A DNA stretch of 64,000 nucleotides. Source: Dehalococcoidia bacterium (GTDB lineage: Bacteria > Chloroflexota > Dehalococcoidia > Bin125). Under the pieces are notes generated by a model that searched no databases, was not told the origin of the DNA, and saw only the letters and a list, made by a program, of their open reading frames with translations. The translations under genes were made by a program, and so were the position numbers. Positions within the stretch are counted from its first letter, which is position 1, and each line of letters starts with the position of its first letter. Below, one piece after another: positions 13,265 to 54,915 of the stretch. The DNA lies in assembly GCA_965218115.1 (NCBI GenBank), contig OZ244584.1:2816771-2880770 (forward strand). Reading direction: 5' to 3'.

Positions 13265-14545
13265 TCAGTCGCCGATCGTCTCGCGCTCGCGCGGCGTCAG
13301 GTGCTGCACGGCTCTGCGCGCGACCAGCTCAACGGCCGCCGGGGCCACGAGCCGCCGCGATGGGATGCGCGGGTTCGGCAGGAAGTGCGCCAGCGTGAAG
13401 AACGCCATCGATGCGACCAGCGCGCCGATGAAGATCTGGAGCAACAGCTCATAGCCGCCCGTTGAGTCGTAGATGTATCCGCCGATGTAGGGCGCGACGA
13501 CTTGGCCGATCGTCTCGACCATGAACATCGTGCCCATGATCGCCCCGAAGTGAGCCAGCCCGAAGACACGCGGCAGAATCAGCGGCTCCAGTACCGGGCC
13601 GCCGGCTGAACCGACCAACCAGCAGAGGATGAACAAACCGATGCCCAGCCACGAACCACCGGTCAACAGCAGCGCGAGGAAGCCGCCGACCAGGAACACC
13701 GCCAGCACCACGGACGCCGCTTCGACACTCGGAATCCGCTCCGCCAGGTAGCCGAAGGTCGGTCGGCTGATCGCACCGCCCAGGCCGCCGCCCATCATCA
13801 GCCACGAGATCGTGTCGCGCGGGATGCCGTAGGCTTCGTAGACCGGCGTGCCGTTCACCATCCATCCGAACATGCCGAAGAAGAAGCACATGAAGGCCAT
13901 CGCAATGACCCAGAAATTGGGCGTGCGAAGCGCCTGACCAACCGTCAGGCCCGCGAGCGCGCGGTGAGCCTGTGCGCGCGTGGGCGCCCGCTCGCCGTCG
14001 ACCTCCAGGCCCATGTCGCTCGGGCGGTTGCGCACGACGAACATGCCGATCGGGAGGAACACCACCGCCAGCGCGAACGCAGCGAAGATGAACGAGAATC
14101 GCCAGCCGACGTTGTCGATCAGCTGCTGCATCACGAAGAACAGGATCACGCCGAGCGAGAAACCCGTCGCCATGATCCCGACCGCGCGGCCCCGTTTGCG
14201 GTCGAACCAGTTTGAGATCAGCACCTGAAACGGGATGTAGAACATGAAGCTGCGGAAAAAGGCGTTGATCGACTGGTAGAGGTACCACTGCCAGAGCGTC
14301 TCGGTGGTCGCCAGCAGCAGGTAGCTGGCGACGGTTAGCACGGTCCCCGCGACGATCGCGAATCGCACTCCGCGCCGGTCGACGAGCTTGCCGGCGAGTG
14401 GTGAGGCGATTCCGCTGATCGCGAGCGAGATCGAGAATCCGATCTGCAGACCCGAACGAGACCAGCCGAACTCTTCCTCAAGCGGAGTGACGTAGAGGCC
14501 GAGCGCCCAAAACGAGACGCCGGCGGCGACGGCCATGCACACCAC
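13265..14545 (-). CDS. MFS transporter (oxalate/formate antiporter-like)
   Basis: 426 aa, 12 predicted TM helices, MFS loop motifs ('GKLVDRRGVR'). Confidence 0.85.
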   Translation of the reverse strand: MVCMAVAAGVSFWALGLYVTPLEEEFGWSRSGLQIGFSISLAISGIASPLAGKLVDRRGVRFAIVAGTVLTVASYLLLATTETLWQWYLYQSINAFFRSFMFYIPFQVLISNWFDRKRGRAVGIMATGFSLGVILFFVMQQLIDNVGWRFSFIFAAFALAVVFLPIGMFVVRNRPSDMGLEVDGERAPTRAQAHRALAGLTVGQALRTPNFWVIAMAFMCFFFGMFGWMVNGTPVYEAYGIPRDTISWLMMGGGLGGAISRPTFGYLAERIPSVEAASVVLAVFLVGGFLALLLTGGSWLGIGLFILCWLVGSAGGPVLEPLILPRVFGLAHFGAIMGTMFMVETIGQVVAPYIGGYIYDSTGGYELLLQIFIGALVASMAFFTLAHFLPNPRIPSRRLVAPAAVELVARRAVQHLTPRERETIGD

Positions 14546-14792
14546 AGCGGCGATCAGCAGCCACCAGCCGTAGAAGATGCGTCCCCGCCGGGCGGGCGCC
14601 GGATTTGCCGAGAGGGCGATAGCTGCGACCTTCGCGGGCGGCCCGGATCAGCCGCCGGGCTCGATCGTCATGTGATGTCGAACAGAGTCTACGACCGCCC
14701 CTCGACCGTGTCTCACACCTCTGTGCCTGGTGGAACGTATCGGGCAGCCGTGCGGAGCACCCGGCGAGCAAGCAGGCGGCCGGAGCGCCTGG

Positions 14793-16076
14793 CTAGTCGC
14801 CGGTCGCCTCGCCGACCCCACTCTCGTGCGGCAGCAGGTGTTGGGCCGCCCGCCGCGCCACCAGGTCGACCGCTCCGGCCAGCGCCGCCCGCGGCGACGG
14901 GATGCGAGGGTTGGGAATGTAGTGCGCCAGCGTGAACATCAGCATCGCCGCCGCGAGCGCCCCGATCAGCGCCAGCAGGTACAGGTCGTAGCTCTCTGTG
15001 GCGTCGTAGATTGCGCCGCTGGCCACGGGGACGAGGAACTGTCCGATCGTGTCGAGCATGAACATCGTGCCCATGATCGCCCCAAGATGCTTGAGCCCGA
15101 ACACGCGCGGCAGGATCAGCGCCTCCAGAATCGGTCCACCGGCCGATCCGACCATCCAGCACGCCATGAACAGGCCGACCCCGAGCCACGAGCCGCCTGT
15201 GATCAGCAAGACCGCCATCCCCAGCGCCAGCACCCCGGCCAACACCACAGCGCCCAGCTCGATGCTCGGCAACCGCTCCGCGAGATAGCCGAAGGTTGGC
15301 CGGCTGATCAGCCCGCAGGCGCCCTGGCCCAGCACGAGTACCCCAATCGCCTCACGACTGATTCCGAACGATTCGTAGACCGGTACGCCGTTGAGGATCC
15401 AGCCGAACTGGCCGAAGAAGATCGCCACGAACGCGAGCGCGATCACCCAGAAGTTGATCGTTTTGAGCGTCTCCCGAACGGTCAGGCCGGCCTGTACGTC
15501 GGCGCCCGCCGTGTTGGTCAGCGGCGTGGGATCCCCGTCAGGGTGGAGGCCCATCTGGGCGGGGTGGTCGCGCACCACGAAGAGCGCCACCGGCAGAAAG
15601 GTGGCACCCAGGACCACCGCCGCGAAGATGAACGACATCTCCCAGCTCACGTTGTCGATGATCTGCTGCATCACCGGCACCAACACCACCCCGCCGGAGA
15701 ACCCCATCGCGAGGATTCCCACCGCGCGGCCACGCTTGCGCACGAACCAGCGCGACATCAGCACCTGGAACGGGATATAGAACATGAAGCCGCGGAAAAA
15801 CGCGTTGATCGAGAAGTACAGGTACCACTCAACGATCGACGATGTCGTCGCCAGCAGCACAAATGACGCGCAGGTCAGCGCCGTGCCGAAGATGATCGCG
15901 AAGCGGGGACCCTTGCGGTCGATCACCCTGCCGGCCAGCGGCGAGGCCAGTCCCGAGACCAGCAACGACACGGCAATGCCGGTTTGCAGCAACACCCGCG
16001 ACCAGCCGAACTCCTCCTCCAGCGGCGTTACATAGAGGCCGATCGACCAGAACGCGGTGCCGGTGATCGCCACCAT
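14793..16076 (-). CDS. MFS transporter, tandem paralog of 13265..14545
   Basis: 427 aa; roughly 60% identical to upstream MFS ('YVTPLEEEFGWSR', 'FMFYIPFQVL', 'ILPRVFGL'). Confidence 0.85.
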   Translation of the reverse strand: MVAITGTAFWSIGLYVTPLEEEFGWSRVLLQTGIAVSLLVSGLASPLAGRVIDRKGPRFAIIFGTALTCASFVLLATTSSIVEWYLYFSINAFFRGFMFYIPFQVLMSRWFVRKRGRAVGILAMGFSGGVVLVPVMQQIIDNVSWEMSFIFAAVVLGATFLPVALFVVRDHPAQMGLHPDGDPTPLTNTAGADVQAGLTVRETLKTINFWVIALAFVAIFFGQFGWILNGVPVYESFGISREAIGVLVLGQGACGLISRPTFGYLAERLPSIELGAVVLAGVLALGMAVLLITGGSWLGVGLFMACWMVGSAGGPILEALILPRVFGLKHLGAIMGTMFMLDTIGQFLVPVASGAIYDATESYDLYLLALIGALAAAMLMFTLAHYIPNPRIPSPRAALAGAVDLVARRAAQHLLPHESGVGEATGD

Positions 16077-16254
16077 GCAGACGACGGACCCAATCAGGAT
16101 CCACCAGCCGTAGAAGATGCGTCCCCGCTGGGCGGGCTGAGAATCGGTCAGGAGGGAGATGGCCGAGCACCTCGCGGGCGGCTGGCGCGTCGCCGCCGCG
16201 ATGCAGCGTCAATCGTCATCGCCCAAGTCTACGACCGCGGAATGGGCGCGCGAC

Positions 16255-19198: not shown

Positions 19199-19313
19199 AG
19201 GGGCAGCCCTCGCGGCTGCCGTTCCCCAGCGGACGAATCGCAGCGTCTGTCTCGCGAACGCGTAAGGGGCAGCCACCACGGCTGCCTCTGCAGGTTCGCA
19301 GACAGATTCTGCG
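19199..19313 (+). terminator. nested GC-rich hairpins, putative terminator or regulatory structure downstream of the LLM gene
   Basis: GGCAGCC-N5-GGCTGCC hairpins at 19202..19220 and 19268..19286; the second is embedded in a roughly 20-bp imperfect inverted repeat (19244..19265 / 19293..19313). Confidence 0.4.
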
Positions 19314-19369
19314 GCGTGTCAAATTGGCTGGGATCGCGACCACACGGAGCCAATGGGGAGACGATCGAG

Positions 19370-19440
19370 ATGACGACGGCCAACTACTGACAGCGCACGC
19401 GACGGCGGCGGGTGAGCCGGCGCGCCCTCCTGCGCCCCCA
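19370..19440 (+). pseudogene. 5' remnant of a family-5 substrate-binding-protein paralog (RBS, ATG, Tat-like 'RRALL'), premature TGA, truncated by repeat array and IS
   Basis: 19325..19440 aligns with 23350..23470 (promoter/leader plus first ~25 codons of the 23396 gene); TGG to TGA at codon 7. Confidence 0.5.
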
Positions 19441-19530
19441 CCGTCGTCCCTACACCTCCCTCCATCACCCCCGCGCCCCCTCCGTCATCCCTGCACCCCC
19501 CCTCTATCACCCCTGCACCCCCCCCCATCA
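19440..19530. repeat. left remnant of the tandem repeat array, separated from the rest by the IS insertion
   Basis: 'ccatcacccc(c/t)gc(a/g)cccc...ctccgtcatccctgc' motifs matching units on the right side of the IS. Confidence 0.6.
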
Positions 19531-21335
19531 GAGCCTGTCTCAGAAGTCGAGGCGACGCTTAGGGTGAACGGTGCGGGCGGCCAGTGGGGCGGCCGGCGTG
19601 GTAGCGGGCTGGGAGGCTGAAGATGCCGTGGCGAGCGATGACGCGCGAGCAGGGCTGGATGTTGCCGCCCTCGCTCGATGAGCTGCTGGCGGACGACCAT
19701 CCCGCGCGGGTGGTGGCGGCCTTCGTGGACGGGCTGTCGGCGGCGGACTGGGCGGGGCTGGGCGTCGACCTCGGCGGGCAGGCGCTGGGCGGGCCGGCCT
19801 ATCACCCCCGCGCGCTGCTGAGCATCTGGCTCTACGGCTTCATGAGCGGGACGCGCTCCTCGCGGCGGCTGGAGGCGGCCTGCCGCGAGCAACTGCCGAT
19901 GCTCTGGCTGAGCGGCTCGCAACAGCCCGATCACAACACGCTCTGGCGCTTCTACAAGCAGCACCGCGAGCGGATGCGCGGGCTGCTGCAGCTGACGGTC
20001 CGCACGGCAGTGCGGCTGAACCTGGTCGATTGGGCCGTGCAGGCGGTGGACGGGACCAAAGTGGCGGGCGCCGCGGCGCCGCAGCGGACGCTCGACGCGG
20101 AGCAGCTGGAGCGGCTGCTGCAGCGCACCGAGCGCGCGATCGTGGAGCTGGAAGCGCAGAACGAAGCGGGCGAGGGCGCGGCGGCGCCGCGGCTGCCGGC
20201 GCAGCTGCAGGCAGCCAAGCGGCTGCGCGAGCAGGTCGAGGCGGCGCGTCGGGAGCTCCTGGAGTCGGACCGCCGGCATACCAACCTGACCGATCCGCAA
20301 GCGCGCCTGCTGCGCGGCCGCGACGGCTGGCTGACCGGCTACAACGCGCAGGCGATGGCGGCGCCGCTGCGGGGCGGCGATCCAGCAGATAGCGACGGGG
20401 CCGCTGCGGGCGGGGGCGGCGCGCTGGACGAGCGGCCGAACGGCGCGGCTGACGCAGATCACGGTCAGCCGGGCGACGCGCTGCAGCCGGGCGGCTCGAG
20501 CGGGGGCATGCTGCTGCTGGCCGCGGAGGTCAGCCAGGATCCGGCCGACACGGCGCAGCTGTTGCCACTGATCGAAGCGGCTGAGGCGAGCGGCGGCGGC
20601 CGCCGCGCCGCGCTGACCGTGGCCGACGCCGGCTACTTCGCGGCCGCCAACCTGAGCGCCTGCGCGGCCCGCGGGGCAGCCGTGGTGATCCCCGAACCAC
20701 GCGCGCCGAGCAACCCCGACTACCACTACAGCCAGTTTCATTACGAGCCCGCAGCGGACTGCTACCGCTGTCCCGCAGGCCAGCCGCTGCAGTTCCGCGG
20801 CCTACAGCGGCGGCGCCGCCGCACGCCGGCCCGCGTCTACGCCGCCAAGCCGGCGGTCTGCCGCGCCTGCCCCGCGTTCGGACGCTGCACGAGCAGCCCG
20901 CGCGGTCGCCAGATCAAGGTCTCGATCCACGCCCAGGCGCTGCAGGCGCACCGCGGCTGGATGCAGACGGAGGCGGCCCGGCAGGCCTTGCGAAGCCGCC
21001 AGGGGCTGATCGAACCGGTCTTCGGGATCATCAAGGAGCAACAGGCCGGGCGCCGCTTCCTGCTGCGCGGGTTGGCCGCGGTCAGCGCCGAGTGGTCGTT
21101 GCTGGCGGTCGCGTTCAACCTGCGGATGCTGAGCCGGCGCTGGCCGCACCGCCGCGCAGGCGGCCCGCCGCAGCGCGGCCGCCGCAGCGCTGCGCCGCCC
21201 GGCCGCCGCCACCGGCCACGCACACCCGCTCCAGCCGCTCGCCGCACAACTCGCTGCTGCCGACACCGCCCGCGCCCCCGCCGGTTCGCTCCCAGACACC
21301 GCTCACACCCCCAGCCGCCCTCCTGAGACAGGCTC
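19531..21335 (+). mobile_element. IS1182-family insertion sequence (about 1.8 kb) with 13-bp terminal inverted repeats
   Basis: IRs GAGCCTGTCTCAG (19531..19543) and CTGAGACAGGCTC (21323..21335); flanking CATCA on both sides (possible 5-bp target-site duplication); inserted inside a tandem repeat array. Confidence 0.75.
19623..21326 (+). CDS. IS1182-family (IS5-like DDE) transposase
   Basis: N-terminal InsH-like domain ('RALLSIWLYGFMSGTRSSRRLE'), DDE_Tnp_1 core ('LTVADAGYF'), Cys-rich C-terminal region 'CYRCPAGQ...CRACP..GRC' typical of IS1182 transposases. Confidence 0.85.
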   Translation: MPWRAMTREQGWMLPPSLDELLADDHPARVVAAFVDGLSAADWAGLGVDLGGQALGGPAYHPRALLSIWLYGFMSGTRSSRRLEAACREQLPMLWLSGSQQPDHNTLWRFYKQHRERMRGLLQLTVRTAVRLNLVDWAVQAVDGTKVAGAAAPQRTLDAEQLERLLQRTERAIVELEAQNEAGEGAAAPRLPAQLQAAKRLREQVEAARRELLESDRRHTNLTDPQARLLRGRDGWLTGYNAQAMAAPLRGGDPADSDGAAAGGGGALDERPNGAADADHGQPGDALQPGGSSGGMLLLAAEVSQDPADTAQLLPLIEAAEASGGGRRAALTVADAGYFAAANLSACAARGAAVVIPEPRAPSNPDYHYSQFHYEPAADCYRCPAGQPLQFRGLQRRRRRTPARVYAAKPAVCRACPAFGRCTSSPRGRQIKVSIHAQALQAHRGWMQTEAARQALRSRQGLIEPVFGIIKEQQAGRRFLLRGLAAVSAEWSLLAVAFNLRMLSRRWPHRRAGGPPQRGRRSAAPPGRRHRPRTPAPAARRTTRCCRHRPRPRRFAPRHRSHPQPPS

Positions 21336-22150
21336 CATCACCCCTGCGCCCCCCTCCGTCATTCCTGCGCAGGCAGGAATCCATGCGACCACCATCCCAG
21401 CAACCACGCCCCGGACTTTCCGACGGCCCTCCAATCCCTCAATCGCCGCACTCCCTCCTCGTTGCAGCGAAACCCGCCCCACTTCCGTAGCGCCGTCCCG
21501 CTGGTGCCTCCGAGATCTCCATCACACAACGGCCACCCCCCCTCCGCCATCCCCTGCGCCCCCCTCCGCCATCCCCCGCGCCCCCCTCCGTCATCCCTGC
21601 GCCCCCCTCCGTCATTCCTGCGCAGGCAGGAATCCATGCGACCACCATCCCATCAACCACGCCCCGGACTTTCCGACGGCCCTCCAATCCCTCAATCGCC
21701 GCGCCTCCGCCCCGTTGCCGTGGAACCCGCCGACCCTCATCCCTGCGCCCCCTCCGCCATCCCCCGCGCCCCCCTCCGCCATCCCCTGCGCCCCTCCATC
21801 ATTCCTGCGCAGGCAGGAATCCATGCGACCACCATCCCATCAACCGCGCCCGAACCCCCCGACGGCCCTCCGATCCCTCAATCGCCGCACTCCCTCCTCG
21901 TTGCAGCGAAACCCGCCCCACTTCCGTAGCGCCGTCCCGCTGGTGCCTCCGAGATCTCCATCACACAACGGCCACCCCCCCTCCGCCATCCCCCGCTCCC
22001 CCCCTCCGTCATTCCTGCGCAGGCAGGAATCCATGCGACCACCATCGCATCAACCACGCCCAGACCTTCCGACGGCCCTCCAATCCCACAATCGCCGCAC
22101 TCCCTCTCGTTGCAGTGGAACCCGCCGGCCCTCACCTCCCCCTCTACCGG
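21336..22150. repeat. tandem array of four 190-250 bp units, each carrying the perfect hairpin ATTCCTGC-GCAG-GCAGGAAT
   Basis: Hairpin at 21361..21380, 21614..21633, 21801..21820, 22010..22029; units share 'gtcattcctgcgcaggcaggaatccatgcgaccaccatcccatcaaccacgcc...'; produces spurious Pro-rich ORFs on both strands ('MDSCLRRNDGG...' ×3). Confidence 0.8.
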
Positions 22151-22230: not shown

Positions 22231-23022
22231 ATGCACATCCCGCCCCAGCGCCGCACCCGCATCCTCGAAGCCCATCGCCTCCGCCGCCGTGGTCGCTCAC
22301 TCCGCAACATCGCCGAGCAACTCAATGTCTCGCCCGCCACCATCCACGCCGACCTCCAGTTGCTCGAATCCAACTGGCCCGACATCGCGTCCCCCACCGC
22401 GCAGGACGCGCTGCTCGAACAGCTCACACGCCTTCGCGCCCTCGCCGACCAGCTCACGACCGACGGTCCGCTCGCCCCCCTGACCCGCCTGGGCTATGAC
22501 GACAACGGCCGCCACGTCACCCTGCTCGATCGCTTCGTCACCCAACATCCCCAGCTCATCACCGACCTCCATCGCATCCACTACCACGCCATCGCCGCCG
22601 TCGCCCGCGAGCTCCGCCTCACCGCCGACCGAATCCTCACCCCCGCACGCGCCGAGGACGCCGCCACCGCCGACATCGATCCCACCGACGCCGCCCACGA
22701 AGCCTTCCCCGAACCTGGCGAGCAACAAACTCCCATCCCGGAACAACCCGTCGCCACCCCTCAGACGCCCCCCGAGCCCGCTCCGGCGGCAGCCCAATCG
22801 ATCACCCCAACCGATCCACACCAAACCTCGCTGAACGGATCCGATCACCCGGCCCCCATCCCACCAGATACAGAGCCCGCGCCGCCCAGCGAGGAAGCCG
22901 AATTTCTCAGCAAACTGATCACAGACACCCCCGACGAACACCAGGAACTCCTCAAAGAGCTGGAAGCCGAACTCGCCGAACTCGGCCACCTCCCCGCCAT
23001 CCCAGTCCCCATCCCCCAATGA
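22231..23022 (+). CDS. hypothetical HTH (LuxR/sigma-70 region-4-like) protein with Pro-rich C-terminus
   Basis: 'RRRGRSLRNIAEQLNVSPATIHADLQLL' HTH; strongly C-ending codon usage (CTC/CCC/ACC/GCC) distinct from neighbouring core genes; lies between repeat array and a MITE. Confidence 0.5.
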   Translation: MHIPPQRRTRILEAHRLRRRGRSLRNIAEQLNVSPATIHADLQLLESNWPDIASPTAQDALLEQLTRLRALADQLTTDGPLAPLTRLGYDDNGRHVTLLDRFVTQHPQLITDLHRIHYHAIAAVARELRLTADRILTPARAEDAATADIDPTDAAHEAFPEPGEQQTPIPEQPVATPQTPPEPAPAAAQSITPTDPHQTSLNGSDHPAPIPPDTEPAPPSEEAEFLSKLITDTPDEHQELLKELEAELAELGHLPAIPVPIPQ

Positions 23023-23108
23023 CCACCCCCGTCGACCCCGATCCCCTGCTGCCCCCCGCTGACCACATTGAGTGGTCAGCGGAATCCCGCTCTCAATGGC
23101 TCTCCCCG

Positions 23109-23286
23109 AGGAGACCTGCGCGTAATCTCCATTTCCCCTCTCCCCCCGCTCGGCGGGGGGAGATGCCGCAGGCAGAGGGGGGCTCCAGGCGCGCCCTCAC
23201 CGAATAGCGGAGGCTCCCCACAGTCACTTCGTGACACCGCCACCGGCAGGGAAGGTCGGAGCAGTGCGACTTACGCGCAGGTCTCC
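23109..23286. repeat. MITE-like element, copy A (178 bp, 16-bp perfect TIRs GGAGACCTGCGCGTAA)
   Basis: TIRs at 23109..23124 and 23271..23286; internal 11-bp-stem hairpin CTCTCCCCCCGC-N-GCGGGGGGAGAT and GTCAC-TTC-GTGAC palindrome. Confidence 0.8.
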
Positions 23287-23395
23287 ACCGGTCGGGTGAA
23301 TCATGACCTCGGTCGCCTCATCGCGGACCGATATCGCCGGGTTGACACGCTGGTTGGGATCGCGACCACACATAGCCAAGAGGGAGACGATTGAA

Positions 23396-25123
23396 GTGAC
23401 GACGGTCAACTACTGGCAGCGAATGCGACGGCAGCGAGTGACTCGGCGTGCCCTCCTCCAGGCCTCGGGCCGCGCCGCAACGCCAGTACGGCGGCAACTA
23501 TTCCATTTACGCTGCGCCCGGCTGGGACCACTTCGACCCGCACCGCGCCAACTTCGCCCATCCCTTCCTCGTCTTCAACGACACGATGGGCCGGCTGATC
23601 CAGGTTGACGACAATCGCGGCCCGATTCTGGCCGCCGACATCGCCTCGCTGCCGGAAATCCCCGACGACGAGACGTACATCTTCAGCTTCGATCAGGGCG
23701 CGCGTTTCTGGGACCGCTATCCCACCGAGGGCGGGCGCATGTTCACTGCGGAAGACGCCGCGTCAACATCAATCGGCAGATCGCCGGCGTCGACGCCAAC
23801 GGCGAGCCCGACGCGCTGTTCTGGCGCGCCTCGGTCTACCAGGAGACGGCGTCGGTCGACGTACCCGACGAGCAGACGCTGGTGCTGAAGACTGATGGGC
23901 CCAACGCGACCTGTCTCGAAACGACGCACATGGGCTACTCGTTCCTCACCTTGCCCGAGGCGATCCAAGTTTGGGACCTGCGCTGGCGCGATGAGAACAC
24001 CAACGTCGAACTGGTCTCAGGGACCGGACCGTTCATTCCGACCGAGTTTGATCCCGACCTGCGCCTGCAACTCGAGCGCAGCCCGGACTATTGGAAGTCG
24101 CTCGACGGCCAGCAAATGCCATTCTTCGACAGCATCACCCGGGTCATCCTCACCGACCAGGTGGCCGTCGAGACCGCCTACCGTACCGGCCAGCTCGACA
24201 GCGTCTCCCTGAACGCCGTGCAGATCGAGGCGATCGAGGCCGACTTCCCGGACCATGTGCGCTTCGACCGCGGCGTCGTCCTGCCGCTGGCGATGCGCTT
24301 CAACTTCAACACCGAGTGGGACCAGAACCCCTGGCTCGACCGCCGCATTCCGTATGCCTTCCACCTCGCCATGGACCGCGACAACATCATCGACTTCGTC
24401 TACCTGGGCAAAGGCAAGCCCTCCGCCATCCAGCAGCTCAACTGGTACCACGGCTGGGCCATGCCCGACGACGAGATGCGACAATTGCCCGGCTACAAGC
24501 CGGACAAGACTGAGGACATCGCCGAGGCCCGCAAGTTGCTCGGCGCGGCCGGCGTCGAATCGGGTACCGAGTTCTCGCTGATCAACGCCGACATCTTCGA
24601 AGGTCTCTACCCGGGCTCGTCGGAGCTCTACAGCAACATGTTCGGCAACGCCCTCGACCTCGAGATCAAGATCGCGATCGAGCCGTACTCCGCAATCTTC
24701 CAGCAGCTCGCCGAAGGCAAGTTCCCCGGACACATGCCGATCTGGGTCGGCGGCGGCGCCGGCGACCCCACCGGCGAGTGGAACAACCGGCTCGTCTTCG
24801 GCGCCTCCGGCAACAACGAGCGCTACAACTTCCAACCCGTCGAAGACATCGTCAAGCGAATGAAGGTCACCCTCGACGCCAACGCACGGCGCGAGATGGC
24901 GCGCGAGGTCTCCTGGATCCTGCTCGGCGAAGATGAGCAATACGGCCTTGACCGCTTCGCCGCCTTCTCCGTGATGGGCAACGGCATCGAGACCTCGATT
25001 TACTGGCCCTACCTCAACGTGCCCGAACGCTCCCTGGGGGTCTGGGAGCGCGAGGGCTGGCACTGGCGCAAGGAGTTCTGGCACGACAGCTCCCACCCCG
25101 ACTACCCCGGCGACCGCGCCTAG
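23396..25123 (+). pseudogene. ABC transporter substrate-binding protein, family 5 (Opp/Dpp-like), Tat-like signal; disrupted by two frameshifts (near 23455-23475 and 23757-23762)
   Basis: GTG start with RBS; 'RRALLQASG' Tat-like motif; three consecutive frames (ORFs 23303, 23448, 23882) each carry contiguous family-5 substrate-binding-protein homology. Confidence 0.7.
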
Positions 25124-25878: not shown

Positions 25879-25938
25879 CCATACCAGGAGAGCTCCGAAC
25901 AACCCGGATCCGCTCTCCTCTCGCTCCCACTCTCCCCC

Positions 25939-26116
25939 CGGAGACCTGCGCGTAATCTCCATTTCCCCTCTCCCCCCGCGGAGCGGGGGGAGATGCCGCA
26001 GGCAGAGGGGGGCTCCAGGCGCGCCCTCACCAGATAGCGGAAGCTCCCCACCGTCACTTCGTGGCACCGCCAGCGGCAGGGAGGGTCGGAGCGGTGGGAT
26101 TTACGCGCAGGTCTCC
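25939..26116. repeat. MITE-like element, copy B (178 bp, same TIRs as copy A, about 93% identical)
   Basis: TIRs 25939..25954 and 26101..26116; hairpin loop differs from copy A (gctcggc vs gcggagc) while stem conserved. Confidence 0.8.
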
Positions 26117-26175
26117 GGAGGGAGAGGGGAGCGTGCTCGCGCGCGGATTTCTTCAGCAGCTTGTGAGTTGAGCCG

Positions 26176-29395: not shown

Positions 29396-29431
29396 GCGGG
29401 GAGCGTATCCGACGATCGGGAATGCGCTAGG

Positions 29432-29661
29432 AAAGCTCTGAACAAGCCGGATCCGCTCTCCCCCCCGCTGACCACATTGAGTGGTCAGCGGAATCCGGAT
29501 CTCCTCTCCCCCCGCTCTGCGGGGGGAGATGTCCCGTAGGGACAGAGGGGGGCCCGATCCTGTCCGACCAGATACAGCGACGGCAGTGAGTCGGAACCGC
29601 AGCCCCCCTCTGCCTGCGGCCTCTCCCCCCGCAAAGCGGGGGGAGAGTTGTTCAGAGCTTT
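29432..29661. repeat. MITE-like element, copy C (230 bp, 14-bp TIRs AAAGCTCTGAACAA; two CTCCCCCCGC...GCGGGGGGAG hairpins plus GCTGACCAC-ATTGA-GTGGTCAGC hairpin)
   Basis: TIRs 29432..29445 and 29648..29661; shares modules with copies A/B/D. Confidence 0.7.
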
Positions 29662-29713
29662 ACTGGCGAGGCGGGAGGGGCGCATCGCGGGGGCATATCC
29701 CAGGCAGGGGGGC

Positions 29714-30829
29714 TCAGGAGAGCGCCAGATTATTGCGGTGCACGACCTCGCTGCCGAAGTCATAGCCCAGCGTGGACTCGATCTTGGTTGAGCTCTGGCC
29801 GCGGATCCGCTCGATGTCGGTGGCGGAGTAGTTGCTCAGGCCGACGCCGATCTGCGCGCCTTCGGGATCGTGCAGGGCGACGATGTCGCCGCGCTCGAAG
29901 CGGCCGTGGACGGCGACGATGCCGGCGGGCAGGAGGCTGCGGCCCTGTGCGCCGATCGCGCGGGCCGCGCCGGCGTCGAGCACGAGCGCGCCGCCCTCGC
30001 CGAGGCCGGCAAGCAGCCAGCGCTTGCGGCTCTCACGGACGCTGGCGGCGGCCGGCACGCAGGTCCCGATCTGCTCGCCGCGGGCGATCCGCACGATCGC
30101 GTCGGGCTCGCGTCCGTTGGCGATCACGACCGTGGTGCCGCTCGAGGCGGCGAGTTGTGCGGCTTCGAGCTTGGCACGCATGCCGCCGCGGCTGCGTTCC
30201 CCGACCGCGCCGGCGATCGCGAGCATCTCGCTGGGGCGCGGCAGGTCTCGGAGCAGCGTGGCGTCGGCGTGGATGCGTGGGTCGCGGTCGTAGACGCCGT
30301 CGACATCGCTGAGCAAGATCAGCAGGTCGGCGTCGATCAGGTTGGCGACGAGCGCGGAGAGCGCGTCGTTTTCGCCGAACGAGCCGCCGCGCAGCTCTTC
30401 GTCCGCGACGACATCGTTCTCATTGATGATCGGCACCACGCCGAAGCGGAGCAGGCGCAGCAGGGTGTTGCGGACGTTGAGATAGCCGAGCCGCTCGGCG
30501 ACATCGGCACGGGTGATCAGCGCTTGCGCGGCGGTCAGATCGTGGCGCTGGAGGAGCTGGTCGTAGCGCTCCACGAGATGGGCCTGGCCGATCGCGGCGA
30601 GGGCCTGGCGCTGGCCGATGCTGGTCTGGTCGCTGCGCGCGCCGACGCGGGCGCGTCCGGCGGCGACGGCGCCGCTGGTGACGATCGCGACCTCGGCGGA
30701 GTCGGCGCGCAGCTCGGCGATCTGGCGCACGAGGTCTTCGAGCACCAGCGTGTCGAGCCGATCACCGCCGGCGGTGAGCAGATTCGTGCCGAACTTCGCG
30801 ATCACCCGCTGCGGGCGTGGTGCCGTCAC
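29714..30829 (-). CDS. proB: glutamate 5-kinase
   Basis: 'VIAKFGTNLLT...VAIVTSGAVAAG' amino-acid kinase domain plus C-terminal PUA; 371 aa. Confidence 0.9.
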   Translation of the reverse strand: MTAPRPQRVIAKFGTNLLTAGGDRLDTLVLEDLVRQIAELRADSAEVAIVTSGAVAAGRARVGARSDQTSIGQRQALAAIGQAHLVERYDQLLQRHDLTAAQALITRADVAERLGYLNVRNTLLRLLRFGVVPIINENDVVADEELRGGSFGENDALSALVANLIDADLLILLSDVDGVYDRDPRIHADATLLRDLPRPSEMLAIAGAVGERSRGGMRAKLEAAQLAASSGTTVVIANGREPDAIVRIARGEQIGTCVPAAASVRESRKRWLLAGLGEGGALVLDAGAARAIGAQGRSLLPAGIVAVHGRFERGDIVALHDPEGAQIGVGLSNYSATDIERIRGQSSTKIESTLGYDFGSEVVHRNNLALS

Positions 30830-30897: not shown

Positions 30898-31986
30898 ATG
30901 CACGTTGACGTTCAGCATTGGTTGCGATGGTGGGGCCTGCATGTGACGTGGGCGTTGCATGACGCACGGACGCTGACGAAACGGACGGTCGCGGAGTTCT
31001 TCGACGATCACTGCACGCAGCTCGCGGCATCGATGTCCTATTACATCCTCTTCTCGATCTTCCCACTCGCGATCCTTCTGGTCTCGATCGCAGGTCTCAT
31101 TCTGACCGACGATGCGCTGCGCGAGCAGGTTGTTGATGCGTTGCTGGAGGCGCTGCCGGTCTCGTCGGGGGCGGCGCGCGAGGACCTCGAGTCGTTGATC
31201 GACCCGATCGCGCAAGGTCGTTCGGCGGTCGGGTTGCTCTCGATTCTGGGCTTGCTGTGGGGCGCATCGGGGATGATGGGGGCGCTGCGCTTCTCGCTCA
31301 ACACCGCCTGGGATCACGAGTATCGACGTCCGTTCGTGCGCGGCAAGCTGGTCGACTTCGGGCTGGTACTCGGCGTCGGCGGGCTGCTGGCGCTGTCGAT
31401 CGGGGCGACGTTGCTGCTGCAGGTCGCCCGCAACGTGAGCGGCGACATCGCGGATGCGCTCGGGCCGTTCGGACCCGGCGCCGGCGGGTTGGTGACCGTG
31501 ATCGCGCTGCTGGCGCCGTTCCTGCTCACCACGACGACCTTTGTGCTGGTGTTCACCGTGGTGCCCAGCGTGCGCGTGCGGAAGCGCGACGCGCTGGCCG
31601 GGGCGCTGCTCTCGGCTGTGCTCTTCGAGCTGCTCAAGAACGGGTTCGCCTGGTATCTGAGCAACTTCTCGAACTACGACGCGGTCTACGGATCGCTGGG
31701 CGCGACGATCGCGCTGCTGTTCTTCATCTACCTCAGCGCGTGCGTGATGCTGTTGGGCGCGGAACTCGCGGCCGAGTGGCCGCGGGTGCTGCACGGGCAC
31801 TACGACGCCGAGCTCGATTCGGTCACCGGCGGTCGCACGGGACCGTGGTATCAGCGCGCGCTGCTGGCGGCGACGGGACTGGTGTTGGAGGAAGACGACA
31901 CGCCGGAGGCGACGCCGGATCTGGAGGCGAGCGCGGCGCGCCAGGATCGTCGTGCGGCGGAGCGGGGCAAGCGGCTGAAACGGTAG
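30898..31986 (+). CDS. YihY/BrkB-family inner-membrane protein
   Basis: 'AASMSYYILFSIFPLAILLVSI' YihY signature, 6 TM; start moved to ATG 30898 to avoid overlap with proB. Confidence 0.8.
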   Translation: MHVDVQHWLRWWGLHVTWALHDARTLTKRTVAEFFDDHCTQLAASMSYYILFSIFPLAILLVSIAGLILTDDALREQVVDALLEALPVSSGAAREDLESLIDPIAQGRSAVGLLSILGLLWGASGMMGALRFSLNTAWDHEYRRPFVRGKLVDFGLVLGVGGLLALSIGATLLLQVARNVSGDIADALGPFGPGAGGLVTVIALLAPFLLTTTTFVLVFTVVPSVRVRKRDALAGALLSAVLFELLKNGFAWYLSNFSNYDAVYGSLGATIALLFFIYLSACVMLLGAELAAEWPRVLHGHYDAELDSVTGGRTGPWYQRALLAATGLVLEEDDTPEATPDLEASAARQDRRAAERGKRLKR

Positions 31987-31988
31987 GC

Positions 31989-32170
31989 AAGCTCTAAATG
32001 ACTCTCCCCCCGCTTTGCGGGGGGAGATGCCGAAGGCAGAGGGGGGCTGCGGTCCCGACTCACCGGCGTGGCTGTATCTGGCGAAGCGGGGACGCCCCCC
32101 TCTGTCACTCCGTGACATCTCCCCCCGCAGAGCGGGGGGAGATTGGGTCCGACTTGCTCAGAGGATTCCT
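31989..32170. repeat. MITE-like element, copy D (degenerate ends; two poly-C/poly-G hairpins and GTCAC-TCC-GTGAC)
   Basis: 32012..32038 and 32117..32143 hairpins; same modules as copy A. Confidence 0.6.
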
Positions 32171-32193
32171 GGACGCCCCGCAACCGGGACGGA

Positions 32194-35100
32194 TCAGGCG
32201 CGGTCCAGTGAGAACTGGAGCTGTGCGCCCTCGATGCTGGCCGAGGCTTGGTGGGTGCGCTCGTTGGCGCTGAAGGCGATGTCGGTCGCGAGCGTCTCGG
32301 CGGCGATCAGGTCTTCGAACGTTGCGAGGGCGGCGCCCAACTCCTCGTCGCCCGTGGCGAGCGTGAGGGCGATGCGGTCGACGGGATCGAGTCCGCTGTC
32401 ACGGCGGAGATTTTGGATGCGGTGAATGACCTCGCGCGCGAGGCCTTCCTGGGCGAGCGACTCGCTGACATCGGTGTCGAGCGAGACGCTGCAGACCTCG
32501 TCTTCAGCGCTGGCAGCCGCCGAGTCGCCGCCCGTTTCGCTCTCGATCAGCAGGTCGTCGGGGCCGAGCGCGATGCCCTCGATCTCGACGGTCTGACCGG
32601 CCTCGACAGCCTGAGCGATGTGCGAGGCGAGCTCGGCTGGCAGCGACGTGAGCGCGCCGCGCAGCCCGGGCAGTTGCGGGCCGAGGCGGGGGCCGAGCAC
32701 GCGCAGGTTCGGCTTGATCGTGTAGCGGCGCGAGCTTGAGCCGGCCTCGGCGAGGCTGACGCGTTTGACGTTGAGTTCGTCGGCGATCGTGCCGGCGTGG
32801 CGCTGGACGGTTGCGGCGTCGGCGGCGCTGCGGACGGCGACGCTGACGGCCGCGAGCGGCTGGCGGACCCGAATCCCGGCCGAGCTACGGGCCGCCCGTC
32901 CCAGCGAGGCGACGCGTTGGACGAGGGCCATCTCGTCGTTCAGCGCGTGGTCGATTTGGTCGGCGTCGGCAGTCGGCCAGTCGGCCAGATGCACGGACTC
33001 GGCGGCGTTCTGGTCGTGCTCGGCGACTAGGTTGCGCCACATCTCCTCGGCGAGGTACGGCGTCAGCGGCGCGAGCAGCCGCGCCAGTGTCGTGAGCACG
33101 GTGTGCAGCGTCTCGTAGGCGGACCTCTTGGCGACGAGATCGGCGGCTGCGCCGGTCCGGGCAGAGGACCAGAAGCGACGGCGGCTGCGGCGCACGTACC
33201 AATTGCTGAGCACGTCGACAAAGCGTTCGAGCGCGCGGGCGGCCGCGGTGGCGTCGTAGTCGTCGAGCGCGGCGGTCTCACGCTCGACCAGCTCGTTGAG
33301 CTCGCTGAGGATCCAGCGGTCGAGGTCAAGCCTGGGCGTCGGCGGGTCGCTCGATGGCCGCCAGCCGTCGATGTTGGCGTAGGTGACGAAGAACGCGTAG
33401 GTGTTCCAGAGCGTGTGCAGGAAGCGCCGCTGGGCCTCGCCGACGAGGCGCTCGGAGAAGCGGCGCGGATTGCCGGCGGGTGAGGCGACGTAGCAGTACC
33501 AGCGCAGCGCGTCCGCGCCGTGGGCGTCGAGCACCGACCAGGGGTCAACCACGTTGCCGCGCGACTTGCTCATCTTCTCGCCCTGCTCGTCGAGGATGTG
33601 CCCGAGCGAGATGACGTGCCGGAAGGAGGTCGGCACCGGGACGGCCGCGGCGCTGTGCAGCAGCACGGCCTCGGCGTGCAGCGAGTAAAACCAGCCGCGC
33701 GTCTGGTCGACGGCCTCGCAGATGAAGTCGGCGGGGAAGCGCTCGTCGAACGTCGCCTGGTTCTCGAAGGGATAGTGCCACTGGGCGTAGGGCATCGCGC
33801 CGCTGTCGAACCAGGCATCGGCGACTTCGGGGATGCGTGTGGCGGTCCCGCCGCAGCTCTCGCACTTGACCAGCACGTCATCAACGACGGGGCGGTGCGG
33901 GTCGCTGAGGTCGGGCGGCCAGCTGGCGTCGTTGTTGGCGTCGTGGTCGAGCGCGCGGTTGCGCAGCTCGTCGAAGGAGCCGACGCAGCTGGTGTCGCCG
34001 CACTCCTGGCAGCGCCAGATCGGCAGCGGAGTGCCCCAATAGCGCTCGCGGCTGACGGCCCAGTCGACGTTGTTCGAGAGCCAGTCGCCGTAACGGCCGT
34101 GGCGGATGTGCTCGGGATGCCACTGGATCAGGTGCTCGTTGCTGTCTTCGAGCGCGCCGCGCAGCCGGCTGGTGGCGATGTACCAGGAGGGCTTGGCGTA
34201 GTAGAGCAGCGGGGTGTCGCAGCGCCAGCAGAACGGGTAGGTGTGGCTGATCGTCTCGCGGCGCGGCAACATGCCGCGCTCGGCGAGGTCGGACATGATC
34301 TCCTCGTCGGCGTCCTTGACCCATTTGCCCACGAACGACGGGCCGAGCGAGGGATCGCCGCTGATGATCCCGCGCAGGTCGACGGGCTGGCGAAAGAGCA
34401 GGTCGCGATCACGGCCGAGCAGGTAGTCGTCCTCGCCGAAGCCGGGCGCGATGTGGACGATCCCGGTGCCGTCCTCCATCGAGACGAAGCCGGCGGTGAC
34501 GACGCGTCGAGCGGGCAGTTCGCCCTCGCATTCGACCAGGCGTGGGCCGTCGAAGCGCCAGGTCGGGTTGCCCCATGCGTCAGGGTCGTAAAGGCCCTCG
34601 TAGGTCACATCTTCGAGCTCGGCGCCGCTCACGCGGGCGACGACGCGTGCGCCGTCGGCGATCTCGACGCCGTCAAGCGCTTGCTCGACGAGGCGCTCGG
34701 CGAAGAGCAGGCGGTCGCCGTTGGCGAGTTCGACCGCTGCGTAGCTCTCATCGGCGGCGACGGCCAGACCGCTGTTGGCGGGCAGGGTCCACGGCGTGGT
34801 GGTCCAGGCCAGGAAGTCGGTGACGCCGTCGTGCCGGAGTGCCGTGGGCAGCGAGTCGTTGTGGGCGCGGAAGCGGATCCAGATGCTGGGGTCAACGGTG
34901 TTTTCTTCGTAACCCTGCGCGACCTCGTGGCTGGAGAGCGACGTTTCGCAACGCGGGCAGTGCGGCGTGGTGCGGCGGGCTTCGTAGATCAGGCCCTGGT
35001 CCCAGAGGGTCTTGATGATCCACCAGCACGACTCGATGTACTCGGGCGTGTAGGTGCGGTAGGCGTCGCTCATGTCGATCCAGAAGGCGACGCGATCGGT

Positions 35101-51470: not shown

Positions 51471-53288
51471 ATGTCGCAGCGCATCCCCATCTCCACCCCC
51501 TGGCTCACCGTTCTGGTCTTGATCGCGCTGACGGCGGCGGCATTTGTTCCGGTCTCCGGCGCGGCCGCGCAGACAGCCGAGGGGTGTGGGGAGCTGCTCG
51601 AGGTCTATCGCGCGGCGGCGGAACAAGAGAGAGACTTCTTCGACGACGACGTGTTCGACGATGACGTGTGGGACGTTGCTGAAGAGCAGGCGGACGCGCA
51701 AGCGGAGGGGGATGCACTTCCAGCCGTCGGTGGAGCTGACGAATCGTCCGCGCCGCCGCAGGACCTGGGCGAGCGCTCGGAGACCGGGACCAACATCCAG
51801 GTCGCGGGCGTCGATGAGTCGGACCTCGTCAAGACCAACGGCTCGGAGATCTTCATCGTCACGGAGGACGCGCTGTTCGTGGTGACGCTGACCGACTCCG
51901 CGCCCGAGCTGGCGACGACGTTCGTCTTCGAAAGCGCGAGTGACCTCCCGCGAGCCAGGCCGCACGAGACGCTGCTCGCGGGCGACAAGCTGTTCGTCTT
52001 CCGCACCGTGCGCTACGGAGCCGAGAGCTTCAAGCAGGGTGGGACGCAGGTGCTGGAGATCGATGTCAGCGAGCCAAGCGCCCCGCGCCTGCTGCGCACG
52101 CTTGAGACATACGGCGCCTTCGTGACGGCCCGACTCGTCGGCGCGAGCGTGCGACTGGTGGTGACGCACGACGGAATCGGGAGCTCGGTCGTCGGCCGCT
52201 ACAGCCGCGACGGCTTCAAGCGGAGCGTGGCCGCCGCCACCCTTGCGACCTGGCTGCCGCTCTACACGGTCAACGACTACACCAGCCTGATCAACCGCTG
52301 GACCGACGGCTCGCTCGTGGAATGCGACCGCGTCGTGACGCCGGCTGACGTGTACAGCGCAGAGACGACGGTGGTCTTGGCGTTCGATGCGGAGCGCGGG
52401 CTGGGCGAGTGGGACGCGGCCGGAGTGGTCGGCGCAGCGTCGGCCGTCTACGCCTCGCGCGATTCGCTGTATGTCGCGCTTCCCAGACTGTTCAACCACA
52501 CGCAGATTCATCGCTGGGATTTCTCCGCCGAAGGTTCGCCGACCTATCGGGGCGCCGCCGAGGTCAACGGCCATCTGATCAACCAGTTCGCGATGAGTGA
52601 GTTCGATGGCCACCTGCGCGTCGCGAGCACTCGCTTCGATCGTGTCGGTTCGAGCAGCGAGCTGACCGTGTTCACGGTTGGAGATGACGCGCTGCAGCAG
52701 CTGGCGTCGCTGCGGGGGCTGGGGCCGAACGAGCAGATCTACGCCGTGCGCTTCCTCGGCGACCGCGCCTACGTCGTGACGTTCCGCCAGATCGATCCGC
52801 TGTTCATCATCGACCTCTCGGATCCGGCGGAGCCGCGCGTGGCCGGCGAGCTGAAGATCCCGGGCTTCTCGGCCTATCTGCATCCGCTGGGCGATGGGCT
52901 GCTGCTGGGCGTCGGTCAGGACGCCGACCCGCGCACGGGTCGCCCGCTCGGCCCGCAGGTGACGCTGTTTGACGTCTCGGATCCTGCCGCGCCGACGAGC
53001 CTCGGGCGCGTCGCGCTGCCCAGCGCATCGACCAGTCCCACGTTCGAGCACCGCGGGTTCACCTACCACGAGGGCCGAGCGTTCATCCCGGCCGGCTACG
53101 AGGCCGAATTGTTCGCCGTGCGGGTCAGCCGCGAGGGCCTGACGGTGGAGGAGCAGATTCGCGGGATGGCCTCAGTGCTGCGAACGCTGCCGCTAGGCGC
53201 TCAGTTGCACCTCATCGAGCAGGGCTGGATCGAGACCCATGATCTGGAAACCCTCGAGCGACAGGGCGGCCTCGAACTCACCCCATAG
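51471..53288 (+). CDS. secreted beta-propeller-domain protein
   Basis: Signal peptide; acidic linker; repeated 'E-S-D-L-V-K-T-N-G' and 'Y-A-V-R-F' type propeller blades; 605 aa. Confidence 0.7.
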   Translation: MSQRIPISTPWLTVLVLIALTAAAFVPVSGAAAQTAEGCGELLEVYRAAAEQERDFFDDDVFDDDVWDVAEEQADAQAEGDALPAVGGADESSAPPQDLGERSETGTNIQVAGVDESDLVKTNGSEIFIVTEDALFVVTLTDSAPELATTFVFESASDLPRARPHETLLAGDKLFVFRTVRYGAESFKQGGTQVLEIDVSEPSAPRLLRTLETYGAFVTARLVGASVRLVVTHDGIGSSVVGRYSRDGFKRSVAAATLATWLPLYTVNDYTSLINRWTDGSLVECDRVVTPADVYSAETTVVLAFDAERGLGEWDAAGVVGAASAVYASRDSLYVALPRLFNHTQIHRWDFSAEGSPTYRGAAEVNGHLINQFAMSEFDGHLRVASTRFDRVGSSSELTVFTVGDDALQQLASLRGLGPNEQIYAVRFLGDRAYVVTFRQIDPLFIIDLSDPAEPRVAGELKIPGFSAYLHPLGDGLLLGVGQDADPRTGRPLGPQVTLFDVSDPAAPTSLGRVALPSASTSPTFEHRGFTYHEGRAFIPAGYEAELFAVRVSREGLTVEEQIRGMASVLRTLPLGAQLHLIEQGWIETHDLETLERQGGLELTP

Positions 53289-53490
53289 GAGACCTGCGCG
53301 TAAGTCCCGCTGCTCCGACCTTCCCTGCCGGTGGCGGTGTCACGAAGTGACAGAGGGGGGCCTCCCCAACCCCCCCCCACCGACCACCCAATGTGCCCAG
53401 CGCAATCTCAAATCTCTCCCCCCTCGGGGGGAGATGTCACGCAGTGACAGAGGGGGGCCTCCCCGACCCCGCCCGCGGCGCAGGTTCCCC
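53288..53490. repeat. MITE-like element, copy E (inverted orientation relative to copy A; one end degenerate)
   Basis: Starts 'GGAGACCTGCGCGTAAG' at 53288; contains TCTCTCCCCCCTCGGGGGGAGATGTCAC-GCA-GTGACAGAGGGGGGCC. Confidence 0.7.
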
Positions 53491-54825: not shown

Positions 54826-54915
54826 TCTCTCCCCCCTCGGGGGGAGATGTCACGAAGTGACAGAGGGGGGCCTCCCGGCGCGCCCTCACCGGATAGCGGA
54901 AGCTCCCCACCGCTC
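54826..54915. repeat. MITE-like element, copy F (about 90-bp internal fragment without TIRs)
   Basis: 'tctctcccccctcggggggagatgtcacgaagtgacagaggggggcctcccggcgcgccctcaccggatagcggaagctcccc' matches copies A/B/E core. Confidence 0.65.

Follow-up and report, generated by a model that had tools for sequence, protein, structure and literature searches.

In this work we analyzed a stretch of 64,000 nucleotides (hereafter, the window) of contig OZ244584.1 from a Dehalococcoidia bacterium and found that the six repeat loci it contains, designated A to F, belong to a real, dispersed and recently mobile nested family of transposable elements of the miniature inverted-repeat type (MITEs) built on a boxC-like unit. 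Elements of this kind are already known; the variant features are insertion that rebuilds stop codons, a MITE whose targets are hairpins belonging to other repeats, and conservation across genomes. In the reading that we prefer, with a probability of about 0.72, small non-coding MITEs account for all six loci, as copies, nested copies or fragments, and in them two vehicles with different terminal inverted repeats (TIRs) surround a common hairpin unit. The window has a G+C content of 68.8%, is chromosomal and contains housekeeping genes (IleRS, ProB, the Suf system, ABC transporters); its host is an uncultured bacterium of the class Dehalococcoidia (Chloroflexota).

All six loci listed in a preliminary description of the window were recovered, displaced by no more than 1–3 nt. 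Copies A and B, given there as 178 bp, are in fact 177 bp each; they do have perfect 16-bp TIRs (GGAGACCTGCGCGTAA) and are 92–93% identical, close to the 93% estimated earlier, and the 14-bp inverted ends of C (AAAGCTCTGAACAA) were likewise confirmed. The possibility had been raised that TIR-like ends arose by chance in two copies; GGAGACCTGCGCGTAA occurs at five exact sites in the window, and the 7 matches found were reached by 0 of 100 shuffled sequences. The modules reported as common to the copies also exceed chance by far: there are six exact matches to the hairpin TCTCCCCCCGC-NNN-GCGGGGGGAGA (expected 0.03), six to GTCAC-NNN-GTGAC followed by AGAGGGGGGC (expected 0.02) and nine to the G-box CAGAGGGGGGC (expected 0.04). 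A hairpin pattern with a 4-nt loop had no matches in the window, the true loop being 3 nt. Besides, we revealed two modules absent from the earlier description, a hairpin GCTGACCAC-ATTGA-GTGGTCAGC (P hairpin) with two exact copies at 23058 and 29467 (0 expected) and, starting at 25891 and 29434, the outer module AGCTCYGAACAAsCCGGATCC. Their presence beside A and B indicates that both copies are embedded in larger mosaics.

As single strands, three elements fold with -104, -120 and -156 kcal/mol (z of -4.6, -7.0 and -11.4 against shuffled sequences), far better than the shuffled sequences. The elements (57–230 bp) are non-coding: no open reading frame (ORF) inside them has the third-codon-position G+C (GC3) signature of coding sequence. 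They do generate spurious ORFs of 90–110 codons without this signature, as had been noticed (23068–23394, 29481–29765, 29485–29763 and 31998–32273).

To derive the structure of the common unit, 105 related loci were compared with the G-box as the anchor. It is about 45–50 nt long and is composed of the 11-bp C6/G6 hairpin (H) with its 3-nt loop, a T, a mini-hairpin, and AGAGGGGGGC/G-box CAGAGGGGGGC. The stems of the mini-hairpin, 3–5 bp long, clearly covary (GCC/GGC in 98 cases, GTCAC/GTGAC in 39, GTCCC/GGGAC in 16, GTCGC/GCGAC in 6 and GCCCC/GGGGC in 2), and its triloop is GNA in 159 of 163 units (GAA 76, GCA 33, GGA 28, GTA 22). C-GNA-G is the motif of an unusually stable mini-hairpin of single-strand DNA (PMC13037366). 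The loops of H are variable and are found as reverse-complement pairs (TCC/GGA, TCT/AGA, TTT/AAA); one H in the related contig L106 carries a compensatory C>G/G>C change (TCTCCCCGCGC/GCGCGGGGAGA). The unit is present either singly (F, parts of E) or as an inverted doublet (C, D) that folds as one long hairpin. We considered whether the doublets arose when an element entered a hairpin loop and duplicated 3 bp, and rejected this origin, since the loops of one doublet differ (TTT/AGA, TCT/AAA).

Some local variants of the unit should be mentioned. At the site orthologous to B in OZ242948 (L019, 7170–7400), five tandem degenerate units of about 58 nt (CTCGATTTCCCTCTTCCCCCGCTTCGCGAAGAGAGATCACGCAA) are followed by one canonical hairpin and G-box; this array is a local amplification of the unit. 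A 22-nt insert, CCTGCCCCTGCGCAGGCAGGGG, was found in the loop of GCC-GCA-GGC mini-hairpins in L021 (3320–3345) and L003 (just past 7092), indicating that mini-hairpin loops also receive insertions. The insert shares CCTGCGCAGGCAGG with a second, unrelated repeat family of the window (see below).

The earlier view of a dispersed MITE-like family was supported by flanking duplications, empty sites, dispersal in related complete chromosomes and the presence of the TIR in other genomes and a metagenome, but a single family with one pair of ends it is not. At least two TIR classes are nested and recombined around the common hairpin unit. The O-type, with the TIR GGAAAGCTCTGAACAAG, comprises C, D and a shell around B, and the T-type (177 bp, TIR GGAGACCTGCGCGTAA) comprises A, B, E and the fragment F.

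The O-type ends are conserved over about 17–25 bp in 27 copies, reading C-TA/GGAAnS-CTCTGAACAAG-YCGGATCC (the slash marks the element boundary) and then H. Ten complete O-type elements of 57–406 bp were available; seven have TA on both sides, and one has a direct TG...TG flank, which is non-palindromic and cannot belong to the inverted repeat. The O-type element starts with G or A, so that TA together with this nucleotide rebuilds a TAG or TAA stop codon and the element comes to lie directly behind the gene. Some IS5 subgroups (IS427/ISL2-type) duplicate 2–3 bp. The combination of TA duplication and CTAG preference is a signature of the IS630 family (PMC2170065 and references therein, including Tenzen and Ohtsubo). 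The O-type may derive from IS630/Tc1-mariner or equally from the IS5 family.

Most T-type copies of the window, of the related chromosome OZ253504 and of LXNI01 metagenome contigs have a C-run on their left side and a G-run on their right. Perfect TIRs were also found on five OZ253504 copies. Perfect 3-bp direct repeats flank 4 of 13 T-type copies (TGA, CGC, CGA, AAA), about 0.2 being expected by chance: TGA/TGA between ...GCCCCC and GGGGGAGA in L003, CGC/CGC between ...CTCCCCC and GGGGGAG in L089, and CGA/CGA in L012, with partial matches in L021. A 3-bp duplication by the T-type is thus supported but not universal. In the LXNI01 contigs L116, L118, L144, L147, L168 and L200 the same 16-bp TIR bounds elements of 191–199 bp whose interiors are wholly different, with GTCCCCGC...GCGGGGAC hairpins. 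These elements sit in the centres of boxC-type hairpins (CCCTCTCCC AAA, element, AAA GGGAGAGGG), and one of them lies within a GTCCC-GNA-GGGAC mini-hairpin. The same TIR around different interiors points to one transposase family that serves several MITE families in different organisms.

Evidence of mobility came from syntenic contigs located through ProB homologues. L106 aligns with the window across more than 15 kb at an identity of about 94%, and both C and D are precisely absent from it and from L113 and L114 (about 94% nucleotide identity to the window). The empty site of D in L106 reads cgcTAGcc, with the convergent IleRS and BrkB-family genes only 22 nt apart, and that of C reads gcgCTAGcg. 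D is also absent from L115, and C from L019, which belongs to the more distant OZ242948. In 21 kb of L115 (82% ProB identity) we found none of the modules. L106, in turn, has a doublet between SBP and GNAT genes that is not in the window. Three states were revealed for site B: a single unit in L113, an O-type doublet in L106, and in the window an O-type shell split by the T-type copy B. A chimera composed of a T-type left end, the interior of D and an O-type right end was found in L005.

The exact hairpin was detected in at least 105 8-kb tiles of a species-representative genome collection, most of them from metagenome-assembled genomes (MAGs) of Dehalococcoidia or other Chloroflexota; the isolate names of several carriers suggest sponge metagenome bins. 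In the OZ253504 chromosome (3.43 Mb) 17 hairpin-bearing tiles are spread out. Confinement of the repeats to this one locus, the outcome that would have spoken against a dispersed family, is therefore not what was observed: the family is dispersed in complete chromosomes of related MAGs. Full T-type copies occupy non-orthologous sites in OZ253504 and the window and are 91–95.5% identical between the two, as alike as copies within one genome. Genes of this genome group (L019, L032) are about 70–76% identical to those of the window, and OZ250140 and OZ253504 are 93% identical to each other (L051/L070). Judged by these identities, the conservation of the T-type is not the result of neutral vertical descent; its near-identity between genomes with about 25–30% gene divergence points to horizontal spread or to unusual constraint.

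Taken together, these data are consistent with the following mechanism. The O-type, with ends GGAAAGCTCTGAACAAG(Y)CGGATCC, would insert at TA, preferably within CTAG, and duplicate the TA; when it lands in a TAG stop codon it would restore the stop and end up behind the gene. The T-type would target C-run/G-run hairpins at their centre, entering the loops of other elements, often with a 3-bp duplication. DDE-type transposases of the cut-and-paste kind, provided in trans, would mobilize both vehicles. Copies could then recombine through the common hairpin unit, giving mosaics, single-hairpin deletion derivatives and chimeras, and the inserted elements would become part of 3' untranslated regions (UTRs). 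On this reading the locus is a clear case, at the sequence level, of layered selfish DNA, where one MITE class enters stop codons yet preserves them and a second lands in the hairpins of the first. This would explain the position at gene ends as well as the assembly breaks and spurious ORFs in such MAGs; in practice, the elements are of use as strain-level markers and call for caution with gene callers on high-GC MAGs.

Several observations weigh against this mechanism. The 2-bp duplication of the O-type rests on the empty sites and the single TG...TG case, TA being palindromic, and the right flank of D is TG rather than TA. The T-type direct repeats are limited to the 4 of 13 copies mentioned above, none of them at A, B or E of the window; in two further copies the triplets are inverted (TCT/AGA, TTT/AAA), and A has no G-run in its right flank. 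The strong conservation of the interior between distant genomes is not needed for mobilization in trans and is unexplained. The GNA triloop and the inverted doublets fit a REPIN-like biology of single-strand DNA better than double-strand cut-and-paste. Finally, a search of about 1 Mb of related tiles, 120 metagenome stretches and plasmid, phage and viral collections revealed no autonomous element bounded by either TIR. Nor is an obvious partner provided by the insertion sequence of the window (19531–21335, 1805 bp), which has perfect 13-bp TIRs GAGCCTGTCTCAG and CATCA on each side: its ends are unrelated to those of the MITEs and its duplication is 4–5 bp. It encodes a transposase of 567 aa (19623–21326) with DUF772, DDE_Tnp_1_6 and DDE_Tnp_1 domains (IS5/IS1182-like).

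Other candidates for the mobilizing enzyme were also rejected. A search for IS5 transposases gave one weak match, in L080, which is spurious because it lies inside ordinary ion-channel/acyl-CoA synthetase genes. Those genes that have hairpins on either side encode ordinary enzymes and small membrane proteins and no transposase, and the long TIR pairs in the metagenome contigs L119, L155 and L202 are chance 16-mers within coding genes. The viral, phage and plasmid collections contained no informative copies of the repeats. It should be mentioned that a second copy of the window insertion sequence is present in OZ253504 (L005, 3789–5685), with CTTG flanks, in the centre of a GGGCAAC...GTTGCCC palindrome.

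Among the alternatives, the one that survives best, while still unlikely, is that the unit and its doublets are REPIN/REP-like and are copied via single-stranded DNA, the enzyme being a Y1 (HUH) tyrosine transposase (RAYT/TIRYT type) encoded once, elsewhere in the genome, and the TIR-bearing forms being secondary. Like REPINs, the window repeats consist of two inverted palindromic units that fold as one long hairpin (PMC3116915), are extragenic, occur as singlets, doublets and clusters, and are conserved beyond their neighbouring genes; such long-term conservation across genomes is typical of REPIN populations. The covarying stems and the GNA triloop, hyper-stable in single-strand DNA, agree with this possibility. 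The TIRs of RAYT-like TIRYT genes reportedly share GGGGWSAS, which the 3' hairpin arm GGGGAGAG appears to fit (PMC3733652), and the grammar of hairpin plus G-box recurs in Proteobacteria, Acidobacteriota, Myxococcota and the boxC of E. coli. However, the conserved GTAG/CGTC tag is missing, GTAG being present only where the triloop is GTA (22 of 163), and the complete elements have TIRs and flanking duplications, which are not products of Y1 transposition. A tblastn search with the E. coli RayT gave 0 matches in about 1 Mb, a weak test because RAYTs are single-copy.

Quite improbable, in our opinion, is a second alternative, namely that the repeats are host-selected RNA elements of gene 3' ends, acting as terminators or as barriers to 3'-5' exonucleases and spread and conserved through selection. 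The gene context offers some basis for it. All copies of the window are intergenic, as had been stated; convergent neighbours, reported for several of them, are those of B and D, the others lying between tandem genes. In the Chloroflexota loci hairpins are strongly biased to gene 3' ends, being present in 25 of 66 convergent, 43 of 256 tandem and 3 of 65 divergent spacers; among 51 tandem spacers with single units, 36 have the unit in the direction of transcription (36 versus 15, a moderate bias). The extreme stability of the folds, the compensatory changes that keep pairing in H of L106 and in the stems of the mini-hairpins, and an interior conservation far exceeding that of the flanking genes could also be so explained. 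On the other hand, the orthologous sites are empty in relatives of about 94% identity, with genes down to 22 nt apart, and the units occur in both orientations. The same 3'-end bias is predicted by a CTAG/TAG target together with purifying selection: CTAG and TA are rare outside stop codons in a genome of 69% G+C, so the target (the TAG stop) and selection against promoter hits are enough to account for the adjacency to stop codons, and use as a terminator is not required. No U- or T-tract follows any hairpin of the elements, so that canonical intrinsic terminators, for which the GC-rich hairpin is present, were rejected; none of 5 terminator-like sites in the 22–33 kb region coincides with an element hairpin. 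Rfam gave no match over the whole window at gathering thresholds, nor in 29.4–32.25 kb at E<=1, and GNA triloops are a stability motif of DNA more than of RNA (PMC13037366). An RNA-stabilizing or terminator effect in 3' UTRs, secondary to insertion, is possible.

Spread without any transposase, in which short palindromes would only recombine, undergo gene conversion or switch templates during replication, is very improbable: mosaic and chimeric copies, the degenerate tandem arrays of L019 and the reverse-complement loop pairs, which hint at loop flipping, agree with it, but the 16–17-bp termini, the duplications, the CTAG empty sites and the new copies at unrelated loci in several genomes are left unexplained. 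We also set aside integron attC sites (the neighbours are housekeeping genes in mixed orientation and there is no R'/R'' core), CRISPR (the spacing is not regular) and, as speculative, G-quadruplex switching (four G-runs are present in the E. coli and proteobacterial units, not in those of the window).

With transposition of two MITE classes as the preferred reading, we compared the elements with known systems. The O-type resembles the IS630/IS5-style MITEs, such as Correia/NEMIS of Neisseria and RUP of pneumococci, in being small, non-coding, multi-copy, bounded by TIRs, intergenic near gene ends and, in principle, co-transcribed; it shares with IS630-type MITEs the 2-bp TA duplication and the CTAG preference (PMC2170065). 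About 15 of 19 positions of its end GGAAAGCTCTGAACAAGTC agree with the IS5 end GGAAGGTGCGAACAAGTC, which was verified in E. coli K-12. In contrast to these MITEs, the interior consists of the poly-C/poly-G hairpin unit, which is also found without TIRs and in other phyla, the elements restore the stop codon they hit and act as landing pads for a second MITE, and a cognate transposase was not found in the related tiles (about 1 Mb) or in the metagenome and vector collections.

Five IS families are known to include insertion sequences with palindromic repeats as their targets (PMC1525189). By analogy with IS1397 and ISKpn1, which target REP/BIME sequences, the T-type lies in the middle of short palindromic repeats, often accompanied by a duplication of 3 bp (PMC1525189). 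It is itself non-autonomous and differs from these IS3-family elements (TG...CA) in its ends GGAGACC...GGTCTCC, its length of 177 bp and the lack of coding capacity, as well as in its target, a C-run/G-run hairpin instead of the enterobacterial palindromic unit, and in the combination of one TIR with several interiors.

REPINs have been discussed above; in contrast to them, the window repeats lack the GTAG tag and possess TIRs and target duplications, and no RAYT was found in the approximately 1 Mb searched. A counterpart of the unit itself is boxC, a 56-bp repeat family of E. coli with about 20–30 copies, listed with about 32 in PMC2267715. A boxC-like 37-mer query was present in 5,410 of 5,426 E. 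coli genomes, with a median of 18 places per genome. boxC has the same order of parts, a C/T-rich-G/A-rich hairpin CCCTCTCCC-N4-GGGAGAGGG, a short linker and a G-box GGGTGAGGGG, and likewise forms intergenic inverted doublets; the window unit differs from it in the C6/G6 runs, the GNA mini-hairpin as a linker and CAGAGGGGGGC in place of GGGTGAGGGG. The window contains 0 boxC-type units and 8 units of its own type. One spacer was checked for the doublet, that between yijF and gldA of E. coli K_EC180 (L111, 401–500), and reads CCCTCTCCC-TTTG-GGGAGAGGG-TTA-GGGTGAGGGG ... CCCTCACCCC-GA-CCCTCTCCC-TGAAA-GGGCGAGGG. The G-rich half of this boxC, G3-AGA-G3-TTA-G3-TGA-G4, is a textbook G-quadruplex motif, competing with the hairpin.

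Forms bridging the two units were found in other phyla, where the exact 25-nt hairpin of the window is combined with GGGTAGGGTGAGGGGGG (after it, or before it in reverse complement). The carriers are Phenylobacterium terrae, Dyella, Anaeromyxobacter oryzae and proteobacterial and acidobacterial MAGs (L010, L014, L023, L030, L096, L013, L018, L020, L036, L050, L072, L090, L093); an acidobacterial copy has the TGCCGAAGGC linker of the window. In addition, boxC-type hairpins host the T-type end in the LXNI01 contigs. The window unit and boxC appear to follow the same grammar, by homology or by convergence, and this grammar gives a clue to a repeat family that has long lacked an explanation. It can tentatively be hypothesized, though we consider it doubtful, that a boxC-like superfamily extends across phyla (Chloroflexota, Proteobacteria with E. 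coli, Acidobacteriota, Myxococcota) and is kept through its single-strand-DNA structure by a conserved enzyme (for example, a TIRYT-type Y1 or a primase-like one), the T-type being a horizontally spreading hyperparasite MITE whose transposase recognizes hairpin loops in any host dialect. If so, the decades-old boxC question would become testable.

The arrangement of the elements in the window is as follows. The P hairpin (23058–23080, forward strand) lies directly 5' of A, its second copy being within C; the order O-P-T is also present in OZ253504. The T-type copy A (23110–23286, forward strand) has its TIRs at 23110–23125 and 23271–23286. Its interior contains H at 23139–23163, the GCC-GCA-GGC mini-hairpin and the G-box (23165–23183), and a second, inverted and degenerate unit with a GTCAC-TTC-GTGAC module (23223–23235).

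At site B the left part of the O-type shell (25887–25939, forward strand) consists of the TIR GGAGAGCTCCGAACAACCCGGATCC and the 5' hairpin arm CGCTCCCACTCTCCCCCC that received B; in L106 an identical left part is followed by the intact doublet. Copy B itself, with its perfect 16-bp TIRs, occupies 25940–26116 on the forward strand, in the hairpin of the shell. The right part (26117–26162, forward strand) comprises the 3' arm GGAGGGAGAGGGGAGCG and a degenerate right end ...TTCTTCAGCAGCTT; the right end of the doublet in L106 aligns with it.

The O-type elements C and D were assigned no strand. C (29430–29660) is flanked by TA at 29428–29429 and 29661–29662 and is composed of the TIR GGAAAGCTCTGAACAAG, the P hairpin, a unit, a centre, an inverted unit and the right TIR. 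The first unit starts with H (29505–29529) and continues with GTCCC-GTA-GGGAC and the G-box; the inverted unit has its C-box at 29602–29612 and H at 29622–29646. D (31986–32169) is an inverted doublet, C-like in its inverted configuration. H (32003–32027) and the G-box (32037–32047) form its first half, which is followed by a 46-nt centre; the second half contains the C-box (32094–32104) and H (32118–32142) with GTCAC-TCC-GTGAC between them. The left flanking TA of D (31984–31985) is part of the TAG stop codon of BrkB, and TG at 32170–32171 flanks it on the right.

The T-type variant E (53288–53488, reverse strand) is inverted relative to A and carries the right half of A at 94% identity. It has a perfect TIR at 53288–53303, whose first G also ends the TAG stop codon located upstream, and a degenerate far TIR, GCGGCGCAGGTTCC, at 53475–53488. 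Two further units (53339–53361 and 53415–53458) are composed of a short hairpin C6-TC-G6, GTCAC-GNA-GTGAC and the G-box. The fragment F (54826–54915, forward strand) derives from the A/B interior and has no TIRs; a short hairpin, GTCAC-GAA-GTGAC and the G-box are followed by central sequence of the A/B type.

The second repeat family of the window, unrelated to the MITEs, occupies 19432–19530 and 21336–22130. Its units of about 22 nt (CCCCCCTCCGCCATCCCCTGCG) end in the hairpin TCATTCCTGC-GCAG-GCAGGAATCC; there are 4 exact copies of this hairpin and higher-order repeats of 187–253 bp, and the array is split by the insertion sequence. A divergent analogue with CGTCAT units and a ATACCCGCG...CGCGGGTAT hairpin was found in the ProB-hydrolase spacer of L115 (11108–11667).

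A 120-bp direct repeat, 81% identical (19312–19431 and 23338–23457), brackets about 3.9 kb that contain the repeat arrays, the insertion sequence, a gene for an HTH protein (22231–23022), the P hairpin and copy A. The sequence duplicated by this repeat is the 5' part of the SBP gene, together with a signal-like start rich in Arg (MTTANYWQRMRRQR...). The whole block of about 3.9 kb is missing between the luciferase-like and SBP genes of L115 and looks like a larger insertion event.

Two observations concern other genes. In OZ253504 (L102, 2900–4500) there is a run of small paralogues, each encoding about 90 aa with a transmembrane segment at the C-terminus and each followed by hairpin elements, and TACAAT located about 8 nt 5' of each ATG suggests leaderless transcripts. 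In the window, tandem MFS transporter paralogues with about 70% DNA identity are located at 13286–14698 and 14823–16238.

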